This document shows, piece after piece, positions 7,418-8,999 of a stretch of 8,999 bases of DNA (its first letter is position 1; every line of letters begins with the position of its first letter). The notes under the pieces were generated by a model. The model saw only the letters and a list, made by a program, of their open reading frames with translations. It was not told the origin of the DNA and did not search any database. Both the position numbers and the translations under genes were made by a program. Source of the stretch: a virus (lineage: Duplodnaviria > Heunggongvirae > Uroviricota > Caudoviricetes); IMG/VR virus record IMGVR_UViG_2693429524_000011. The stretch is one strand, 5' to 3'.

Positions 7418-7558
7418 TTACTCAAAAAAAAGCGACGAGAAAATCAGCATCAACGAACAATAAGCGCCAATACGTGATAACAAATGGCAGCCATATTTAT
7501 CTGCAGTATAAGCAATGGACAGGATAACCACACCAGAAACCGTCAGCATAAAATCCAT
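7418..7558 (-). CDS. Candidate 44-aa hydrophobic small protein (not in the ORF track, which omits ORFs under 60 aa)
   Basis: Hand translation of the minus strand from ATG at 7558: MDFMLTVSGVVILSIAYTADKYGCHLLSRIGAYCSLMLIFSSLFFE*, with stop at plus 7418-7420. GGGGAAG lies about 7 nt upstream of the ATG. It has two hydrophobic stretches and sits in an AT-rich intergenic region. Confidence 0.35.
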   Translation of the reverse strand: MDFMLTVSGVVILSIAYTADKYGCHLLSRIGAYCSLMLIFSSLFFE

Positions 7559-8203
7559 TTGAACTTCCCCGGACAAAATCGACTCATCTAAAGATTTACA
7601 GCTCTTTTTATTATCAATATGTTAAAAGTAAAATAAACAGATGTTCAATAACACGAATACAAAAACGTGCTGAAATTCAATGAATCCATTTCTGTGTCAT
7701 CAATTAATAGTGATAAACATCCGGCTTCTTCCACCATCGCACCGGACAGGCGGCTATGAGGGGACAACGCCGCGCTCCGTTAACGCGGTAAACCCCGGTG
7801 TGTATCGTTTTTGATTATCCCCGCACACTCGCGCAGAAGGAATTCCCCGTCGGGCTACGGTCATGGTTAATGCGGGAATACGGCGACGATACAGCGCATA
7901 ATGTGTCAGGCTTGAATACCTTTATCCGTTAAAAGGGATATCAGTTAAGTTATCCCGTGTAGGGTATAAGCCATTGTCGAGACCACTCATTGAATGGCCT
8001 CTGCAATAACCGATGTCTTTCCATCAGTCCGCCACCACAAAGAATCTTTTTTGCCTTAAGGCTGGAGCTTCATCTTTCAGTGGCTGCCAGTGTTATTTCC
8101 CCACTTACTGGCTTGGGTTGTTTCGCTGTACTGCCGTAACTGGTTGCCAAGAATAAATTCTGGTTTCATTATCAAGCCCACCCGTAGATAGGCTTTGTCA
8201 TGG

Positions 8204-8491
8204 CTACTTCTTCAGAAATGATTCGATGAATTCACGTCGGGGATGACGATAGTTCAGAATATCTTCTGGCATCCTCATAAAGCGGTTGTTGCCGTCTTTG
8301 GCAGTAACAAAACAGCTGTGAACTCCGCAGACATCCGTTTTTATTGTGTCGCTATACTCAAAAAGCAACTGAGCCATCTTCTCTTGCCATTCTGGCGGCA
8401 TAGCCTCCATGAATACTCGCGGCATCACGCAGAACGGCGCATGCGTAAGACCAAACCACAGTTGCAGGTCTTTACGATATTCTTCATCCAT
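8204..8491 (-). CDS. Hypothetical 95-aa prophage cargo protein with a possible His/Cys metal-binding motif
   Basis: ORF-track protein MDEEYRKDLQLWFGLTHAPFCVMPRVFMEAMPPEWQEKMAQLLFEYSDTIKTDVCGVHSCFVTAKDGNNRFMRMPEDILNYRHPRREFIESFLKK. It is in late-operon orientation between the Rz remnant and cos, with a weak AAAGG Shine-Dalgarno. Contains H17, C21 and C55-x2-H58-x-C60. I do not recognise the family. Confidence 0.55.
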   Translation of the reverse strand: MDEEYRKDLQLWFGLTHAPFCVMPRVFMEAMPPEWQEKMAQLLFEYSDTIKTDVCGVHSCFVTAKDGNNRFMRMPEDILNYRHPRREFIESFLKK

Positions 8492-8509
8492 CGTCTTTAC
8501 CTTTGTTGC

Positions 8510-8535
8510 AATAAAAAGCCCCGCGAATGCGAGGC
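8510..8535 (-). terminator. Candidate intrinsic terminator on the minus strand, downstream of the Rz remnant
   Basis: Minus-strand RNA GCCUCGC-AUUC-GCGGGGC followed by UUUUUAUU: a 7-bp stem with one G-U pair and a 4-nt loop. The plus-strand equivalent has a C-A mismatch and no U-tract, so the signal is strand-specific. Confidence 0.45.
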
Positions 8536-8709
8536 TAAATCCTGGTATTTGTAATGACTGGCTCTTATCTCAACGCAGCCCCTTACCGCGCGCAAGATGC
8601 TCAATATCAAGCATCAGCAATGAGATGTTTAATCTGGATTCACTCCAGAAGTGTTCACCACCCTGTCTACAGAGCCAGATGTGAAGAATGATAAGTAAAA
8701 TTATCGCTA

Positions 8710-8875
8710 TCATCGAAGGCATTGCGTCCTGATGTATTCCTGAAGCGTTCTCAGTGCTGTTTGGTCGCTGATGATTCCGTCCCGGATACCGAGAACGTTT
8801 CGTCCAGCAACTGGAGAGAGTTCGACGGTGGCATCATTGCCCATGCCGGAGGCGCTGGAGGCTTCGGCTGAGGAT
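8710..8875 (-). pseudogene. Rz: C-terminal fragment of the Rz i-spanin, truncated at its 5' side by the IS insertion
   Basis: Minus-strand translation from the IS boundary: SSAEASSASGMGNDATVELSPVAGRNVLGIRDGIISDQTALRTLQEYIRTQCLR*. It resembles the lambda Rz C-terminus (...RLITMQKQLEGTQKYINEQCR*). Stop at plus 8710-8712. Confidence 0.7.
8751..8875 (-). pseudogene. Rz1: C-terminal fragment of the Rz1 o-spanin, embedded in Rz in the +1 frame; signal peptide and lipobox missing
   Basis: Minus-strand +1-frame translation PQPKPPAPPAWAMMPPSNSLQLLDETFSVSGTESSATKQH*, proline-rich like the lambda Rz1 stretch ...CVKPPPPPAWIMQPPPDWQ.... Stop at plus 8751-8753. Confidence 0.6.
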
Positions 8876-8999
8876 TGAACCGCCCCGGAAATCCTGGAGA
8901 CTAAACTCCCTGAGAAAGAGGTAAACAGGATGACTAAAAATACTCGTTTTTCCCCCGAAGTCCGTCAGCGGGCGATTCGTATGGTTCTGGAAAGTCAGG
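8876..8999 (+). mobile_element. Left end of an IS3-family insertion sequence (IS629/IS1203-like); continues past the window end
   Basis: Terminal sequence TGAACCGCCCCGGAAATCCTGGAGACTAAACTCCCTGAGAAAGAGGTAAACAGG precedes the orfA start; this matches my memory of the IS629 left inverted repeat region. The element abuts the truncated Rz/Rz1. Confidence 0.8.
8930..8999 (+). CDS. IS3-family transposase OrfA, N-terminal 23 codons (partial)
   Basis: Translation MTKNTRFSPEVRQRAIRMVLESQ... from ATG at 8930, with GAGG about 10 nt upstream. Recognised as the IS629/IS1203 OrfA N-terminus. Confidence 0.8.
   Translation, partial: MTKNTRFSPEVRQRAIRMVLESQ

Follow-up and report, generated by a model that had tools for sequence, protein, structure and literature searches.

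A defective lambdoid prophage very probably underwent an IS-associated deletion in its lysis cassette, and the last 290 bases of the window, by which we mean the whole stretch of viral DNA analysed here (8,999 bp), hold the left junction of that deletion. In the window, the left end of an IS629-group element abuts the 3' remnants of the nested spanin genes Rz and Rz1 (Table 1). In a complete sister genome, E. coli Z1323CEC0019 (NZ_CP148401.1; chicken, South Korea), the opposite end of the element abuts a truncated ydfR gene, no target-site duplication (TSD) is present and a segment that includes the endolysin gene is missing. The first-pass annotation of this DNA named the players correctly but described the event incompletely: it was a deletion, which took the endolysin gene as well, and no plain insertion.

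The window is the entire draft contig CYFD01000096.1 of assembly GCA_001284405.1. Its left edge lies inside the tail-fibre gene J and its right edge 124 bp into the multi-copy element. Both edges are repeat-induced assembly breaks, and edges of this kind are the usual break points of short-read assemblies. A search of 5,426 complete E. coli genomes, the set used for all of the complete-genome counts given below, recovered the IS/Rz junction in one record only, that of Z1323CEC0019, which is 100% identical to the window over positions 8500–8999 (500 bp) and 99.8% identical over positions 615–8999. The differences amount to 15 substitutions and one 96-nt in-frame indel in J, and the two are therefore close relatives but different strains. 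The locus of NZ_CP148401.1 is denoted L001 (L001 coordinate = window + 1501); L005 denotes the PEC41 locus, L006 that of EPSSH018 and L007 that of O111:H- 95NR1 (NZ_CP021339.1). A literature search on Z1323CEC0019, CYFD01 and JADICZ01 returned nothing useful.

An assembly artefact, in which an IS end and the Rz remnant had been misjoined at the edge of a short-read contig, would be in keeping with a draft contig that terminates in a multi-copy repeat, but the identical 500 bp junction in an independent complete genome and the complementary junction in a third assembly (see below) leave this explanation a negligible probability.

Table 1. Features of the window referred to in the text (window coordinates).
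Feature	Position	Strand	Details
Terminase A-'L fusion	4042..4276	-	terminase stop 4274-4276; last 75 codons of L 4042-4269; joint ~4257/4258
Small phage ORF, intact, 50 aa	8570..8722	-	phrog_11822, full length, E=2e-37
Rz (i-spanin) 3' remnant	8710..8875	-	stop 8710-8712; 54 codons 8713-8874; 1 nt of a split codon at 8875
Rz1 (o-spanin) 3' remnant, nested in Rz +1 frame	8751..8875	-	stop 8751-8753; 40 codons 8754-8873
IS629-group IS (IS1203 isoform, IS3 family), first 124 bp	8876..8999	+	100% identical to L001 10377-10500
Left terminal inverted repeat (IRL)	8876..8900	+	TGAACCGCCCCGG; from alignment of the two IS ends
IS orfA start, first 23 codons	8930..8999	+	ATG at 8930; translation MTKNTRFSPEVRQRAIRMVLESQ

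The element and the spanin remnants

From position 8876, the first base of the element, the window reads TGAACCGCCCCGGAAATCCTGGAG..., which is the left IS end, and a GAGG Shine–Dalgarno sequence for orfA is found at 8918–8921. Comparison of the IRL (8876–8888, TGAACCGCCCCGG) with the right terminal repeat (IRR) in L001 gives a perfect match over 13 of 13 positions and 22 matches over the first 25. The window carries just 23 codons of orfA and the complete orfA/orfB structure was read in Z1323CEC0019, where the full element occupies L001 10377–11686 (1,310 bp) and encodes OrfA (108 aa; Pfam HTH_Tnp_1) and, in the -1 frame, OrfB (296 aa; rve and HTH_21, with 316 bits to NCBIfam transpos_IS3). 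RefSeq annotates it as an 'IS3-like element IS1203 family transposase' with a programmed frameshift. Many copies that carry the IS1203 family annotation, in O157:H7, O111 and other genomes, match it at 100% identity over all 1,310 bp. We take the isoform name from the RefSeq annotation and from PMC3271280, which classes IS1203 among the isoforms of IS629.

The element thus named shares with the IS629/IS1203 elements of EHEC and Shigella (IS150 type) its length of 1,310 bp and its TGAACCGCCCCGG terminal repeats, as well as an orfA (HTH_Tnp_1) and an orfB (rve, DDE) in the -1 frame that are linked by a programmed frameshift; its transposase (WP_171877072.1) is common to O111:H- 95NR1. It departs from the norm of this group in that the copy described here has no 3 bp TSD. 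Since this absence follows from the deletion of flanking DNA, it does not count against the identity of the element.

On the other side of the boundary, the minus-strand frame starting from 8874 translates to SSAEASSASGMGNDATVELSPVAGRNVLGIRDGIISDQTALRTLQEYIRTQCLR followed by a stop, which is the tail of Rz, and the +1 frame starting from 8873 translates to PQPKPPAPPAWAMMPPSNSLQLLDETFSVSGTESSATKQH followed by a stop, which is the tail of Rz1. The latter contains the proline-rich mature part of the protein (PQPKPPAPPAW...) in the +1 frame of Rz. The third minus-strand frame meets a stop after 13 codons. The Rz and Rz1 fragments stay open precisely up to 8875, and neither is a chance match: the 54-aa Rz fragment aligns with positions 76–125 of the 126 in Pfam Phage_lysis (PF03245; E=6e-8, 33.4 bits against a cut-off of 25.4; the intact Rz of the relative L005 scores 100.8 bits), and the 40-aa Rz1 fragment aligns with positions 10–41 of the 41 in Pfam Rz1 (PF06085; E=4e-16, 58.9 bits against a cut-off of 27.9).

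The intact proteins of L005 define what has been lost. Rz is 155 aa long there, with an N-terminal hydrophobic segment (VSRVAAIIYALVICIIVCLSWAV), and 51 of the 54 residues of the remnant are identical to its C-terminus. Rz1 comprises 68 aa, begins with MRKLKMMLFGASLIMVVGC and has the signal peptide and lipobox MRKLKMMLFGASLIMVVG/C (...LIMVVG/C). By this comparison the window Rz is without 101 N-terminal residues, the transmembrane anchor among them, and the window Rz1 is without 28, namely the signal peptide, the lipobox cysteine and nine residues of the mature protein. The Rz copy in the window is a pseudogene that provides no functional i-spanin member, and the surviving Rz and Rz1 tails would be devoid of membrane-targeting signals. 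RefSeq labels the Rz remnant in NZ_CP148401.1 'lysis protein, incomplete, missing N-terminus'. These data bear out much of what the first-pass annotation had claimed for this region: an IS629-like identity, with the qualification that RefSeq calls the identical copy IS1203, an IS629 isoform (PMC3271280); a boundary at 8875/8876; an IS629-type OrfA start; Rz and embedded Rz1 frames that run open to the boundary; and, by reference to the intact L005 proteins, loss of the Rz transmembrane segment and of the Rz1 signal peptide and lipobox.

The intact 50-aa phage ORF directly downstream of Rz (Table 1) overlaps the final 13 nt of Rz and is annotated in L001, L002 and L005. Its preservation indicates an undisturbed prophage leftward of the scar. 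Two further reading frames over the remnant, one on the plus strand at 8722–8871 (49 aa, TTG start) and one at 8710–8844 (44 aa, ATG start), were rejected as by-products of the Rz remnant and are not genes.

The far side of the element and the missing segment

In L001, the right end of the element adjoins the first 187 nt (62 codons) of ydfR (Pfam DUF1327, E=5e-31), a remnant that RefSeq labels 'DUF1327, missing C-terminus', and beyond it lie an intact class II holin gene and then four tRNA genes. The late operon accordingly reads holin, ydfR', IS (antisense), 'Rz/'Rz1. The sequence flanking the element is ...GAGGAT-IS-GTCTGA... (right side GTCTGATG...), and there is no 3 bp TSD around it in L001 (GAT on the left versus GTC on the right). 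As a control, a simple insertion of the same element in the ydfR gene of EPSSH018 (L006) has the duplication GTA/GTA. A third assembly, GCA_017594445.1, possesses the same right junction (3,429 bp at 100% identity to L001), which makes the scar a trait inherited within a small lineage. The window itself ends 124 bp into the element; the right-hand junction of its own genome, which is probably the one seen in Z1323CEC0019, is taken from these relatives.

The ydfR remnant gives rise to a chimeric reading frame. At L001 11267–11873 (minus strand), ydfR' reads through the right IS end to yield a 140-aa product composed of 62 aa of YdfR and 78 aa of IS antisense. The fusion proteins predicted for the assembly of the window (99–107 aa, full length 140 aa) had no exact match in the protein collection, and the one such fusion returned by a homology search was a 98-aa partial protein from a different assembly, which has been deposited as 'DUF1327 domain-containing protein, partial'. 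Read-through ORFs of this kind have entered protein databases: among the 1,087 proteins that the homology search recovered (E<=1e-10), hundreds appear to be unrelated genes that carry the same IS-end tail.

The first-pass annotation had described the spanin genes as truncated by insertion of the element, and had suggested a search beyond 8999 for the other IS end, a TSD and the 5' parts of Rz, R and S. When this search was carried out in Z1323CEC0019, S was present, but R, the 5' parts of Rz/Rz1 and the TSD were not: the other IS end abuts ydfR' and approximately 1 kb is gone. A simple insertion into intact Rz/Rz1, which would place the 5' parts of Rz/Rz1, R and S directly past the element and leave a 3 bp duplication, is compatible with the window taken alone, as the contig ends inside the element, and IS629-type insertions with a TSD do exist in lysis cassettes (L006 being an example). 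We nevertheless regard it as very unlikely. The sole complete genome with the junction has ydfR' on the opposite side and no TSD, the right IS end adjoining the 5' part of Rz was found at this site in none of the 5,426 genomes, and the third assembly has the matching ydfR'-IS junction at 100% identity.

Relatives that retain the missing DNA were identified by searching all of the complete genomes with a query consisting of 1.2 kb from each flank joined together, and the uninterrupted, collinear relatives recovered in this way allow the extent of the loss to be estimated. In PEC41 (L005), the left flank extends to position 2260 and the right flank resumes at 3320, such that 1,059 bp are missing from L001. 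Relative to PEC41 these comprise 302 nt from the 5' end of Rz, including the start of Rz1, the entire 534-nt lysozyme gene (rrrQ) and 164 nt from the 3' end of ydfR. With the arrangement found in SLK172 the missing segment would measure about 1,015 bp. The resulting size of ~1.0–1.06 kb is an estimate, since the best relatives of the left and the right flank are different mosaics. The deletion without the element was found in none of the 5,426 genomes. Exact ancestral or reciprocal junctions, searched for as two hypothetical junction sequences, were likewise found in none of the 5,426, and the hits to these queries at >=80% coverage (290 and 10) proved to be joined pieces derived from IS copies at other nearby positions.

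A chimeric origin was also considered, in which recombination between IS copies residing in two lambdoid prophages, by inversion or large deletion, would have produced the arrangement with no local deletion of 1 kb, the Rz side and the holin side then stemming from different prophages. The host genome offers material for such an event: Z1323CEC0019 is very rich in the element, with at least 40 IS pieces, and harbours several lambdoid prophages, the terminase/L query matching in nine places. The best relatives of the left and right flanks differ, and rearrangements mediated by IS elements and prophages are well known in EHEC. Against this, the flanks are collinear and in the same orientation in uninterrupted relatives, where they lie 1,059 bp apart, the genes on either side of the element keep to the canonical late-operon order on a single strand and, with regard to an inversion, the reciprocal junction (ydfR 3' part, IS left/right, Rz 5' part) occurs in none of the complete genomes, the sister included. 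Because of this collinearity and the lack of a reciprocal junction, recombination between prophages is less likely than a local deletion and in our view improbable, with a large direct deletion spanning two prophages as its formally possible variant.

[quoted passage not shown] Both IS ends are intact and the 3 bp duplication is lacking, and it follows that a second IS-dependent step would have taken place after a first insertion. In the sequence of events that we propose, the element would initially have inserted at one of the two sites, and the second step would then have created the scar, leaving the left IS end joined to the final 165 nt of Rz, in which the Rz1 tail is nested, and the right end joined to the initial 187 nt of ydfR. 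One candidate for this step is an 'adjacent deletion', in which the transposase directs one IS end against a site close by on the same molecule; it would belong to the class stimulated by IEE in EHEC. Alternatively, a second copy could have inserted nearby, and the two direct IS copies could then have undergone homologous recombination. The scar fits both routes alike, and the involvement of IEE is a possibility. IS629 is documented to cause gene inactivation and deletions next to the element that range from a few nucleotides to >40 kb, in EHEC the IEE protein enhances these adjacent deletions, and 62% of the IS629 copies of O157 are located in prophages (PMC3271280, PMC9943667, bioRxiv 10.1101/2023.06.07.543989). 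The iee gene is expected in >30% of assemblies (PMC9943667).

Precedents, recurrence and host background

Lysis cassettes of the lambda type have the order S-R-Rz/Rz1, and a variant with the order holin-ydfR-rrrQ-Rz occurs in E. coli prophages, as in the Qin-like prophages. The uninterrupted relatives L003, L004 and L005 match this variant, with a class II holin, DUF1327/YdfR, a lysozyme and Rz with embedded Rz1. In contrast, just the holin gene is intact in the cassette described here; ydfR breaks off after codon 62, no endolysin gene is present and only the C-terminal tails of Rz/Rz1 are left. A prophage that keeps its holin and has neither an endolysin nor a functional spanin would probably not achieve proper lysis of its host.

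Retention of the intact class II holin, the upstream regulatory region and the four-tRNA cluster, when the endolysin, spanin and virion genes have been removed, might be taken to reflect selection for a domesticated holin-only module rather than neutral decay, a reading to which we assign little credence. Were it correct, such a module could serve, for example, in non-lytic protein release or in abortive killing on induction, and IS629-mediated deletion would be a tool of domestication. The tRNA cluster (Gly, Thr, Lys, Ile; L001 12386–12695, minus strand) is situated just upstream of the holin gene, is also found in relatives and has stayed intact while the lysis and morphogenesis genes decayed.

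Scars of this type have precedents. IS629-associated deletions and the immobilization of prophages in E. coli O157 have been described by Ooka et al. (2009) and Kusumoto et al. (2011; IEE), as cited in PMC3271280 and PMC9943667. The present case is like the O157 deletions in that an IS629-type element resides in a prophage with its ends intact, the adjacent DNA is gone and phage genes are inactivated. It differs in that the nearest genome is a chicken isolate. A closer structural parallel is found in O111:H- 95NR1 (L007 2441–4041), in which the same element abuts truncated Rz and Rz1 genes ~12 bp from the equivalent position. That scar likewise has no TSD and is accompanied by a deletion on the other side, but it has the opposite polarity, so that the 5' parts of Rz/Rz1 are retained, its other flank is the tccP2/espV effector region and its Rz allele is just 83% identical to that of the window. 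It is an independent event, and it suggests that the Rz/Rz1 region is a recurrent breakpoint for elements of the IS629 group. Simple insertion into ydfR is exemplified by EPSSH018, and about 290 genomes have an insertion of the element close to the holin, ydfR and lysozyme genes, with O157:H7 strains among the ten matches listed. The presence of IS629/IS1203 in lysis cassettes is thus recurrent.

The scar is an ordinary and well-known kind of prophage decay, and RefSeq already has it as pseudogenes beside an IS1203 transposase. It adds one further case of IS629/IS1203 disabling a lambdoid prophage. A prophage-disabling role has already been proposed for IS elements in EHEC genomes. The case carries a practical lesson for draft assemblies: contigs that end ~100–130 bp into an IS element should not be taken for simple insertions, given that such an edge here conceals a deletion of ~1 kb and the loss of the endolysin gene.

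The first-pass annotation had further taken IS629 as a hint of a pathogenic lineage, and the distribution of the element makes this a weak indication. Sequences of this element are found in 4,253 of the 5,426 complete genomes and are near-full-length in 3,043 (56%), on chromosomes as well as plasmids and in isolates from humans, cattle and poultry, and the genome nearest to the window is that of a chicken isolate. With the element in 56% of complete genomes, its presence alone is not diagnostic of pathotype. Z1323CEC0019, with its 40 or more IS pieces, is an unusually IS-rich genome; few records reach 40, and many of those at or near this number among the matches listed are O157:H7 or O111 strains. 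Only this very high copy number resembles the state of EHEC-type genomes.

A second lesion and other features of the prophage

A second defect is located between the terminase and the tail genes. The large subunit of terminase A is intact (641 aa; window 4274–6199). Past its stop codon the sequence continues for ~16 nt into gene W and then enters the remnant of tail gene L (Table 1), such that the gene order on the contig is GpA, a Phage_tail_L fragment, K, I and J. The portal, protease, capsid, tail-tube and tape-measure genes are absent from the prophage, which has lost all of its head genes and most of its tail genes. RefSeq calls the L remnant 'minor tail protein L, missing N-terminus', and it aligns with only the C-terminal part of the PHROG minor tail protein. 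Other genomes match this region only from window position 4258 onward (4258–4520). The full A-'L junction was detected in one of the 5,426 complete genomes, again Z1323CEC0019, and no IS element is present at it.

The first-pass annotation had presented the IS scar as a second, independent inactivating event and as a sign of stepwise domestication. The A-'L joint shows that a second lesion does exist. The A-'L and IS junctions are private to the same lineage (one genome each), and neither an order of events nor a stepwise spread can therefore be derived from them. The loss of the head and tail genes, together with the lesion in the lysis cassette, would probably leave the prophage unable either to lyse its host properly or to make particles. 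Prophage predictors should not score such a doubly crippled prophage, which lacks endolysin and spanin as well as head and tail genes, as inducible or intact. The private junctions at 8875/8876 and ~4257/4258 are usable as lineage markers.

Two minor observations concern other genes of the window. At 615–627 (gene J, minus strand; L001 2033–2126), the window gpJ is shorter than that of Z1323CEC0019 by 96 nt (32 codons, in frame). The edges of this indel are marked by an imperfect direct repeat of ~13 nt; an origin from a tandem repeat was considered and discarded, as no tandem repeat was found. The indel could be a real length polymorphism of the tail tip protein or a collapse in the short-read assembly. 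At 8204–8491 (minus strand), the window encodes a 95-aa hypothetical protein that matches phrog_3527 only over its C-terminal ~92 positions (139–230 of 233). The same short form is annotated in the uninterrupted relatives L002 and L005, and it may represent an older, widespread truncation or a stand-alone domain.
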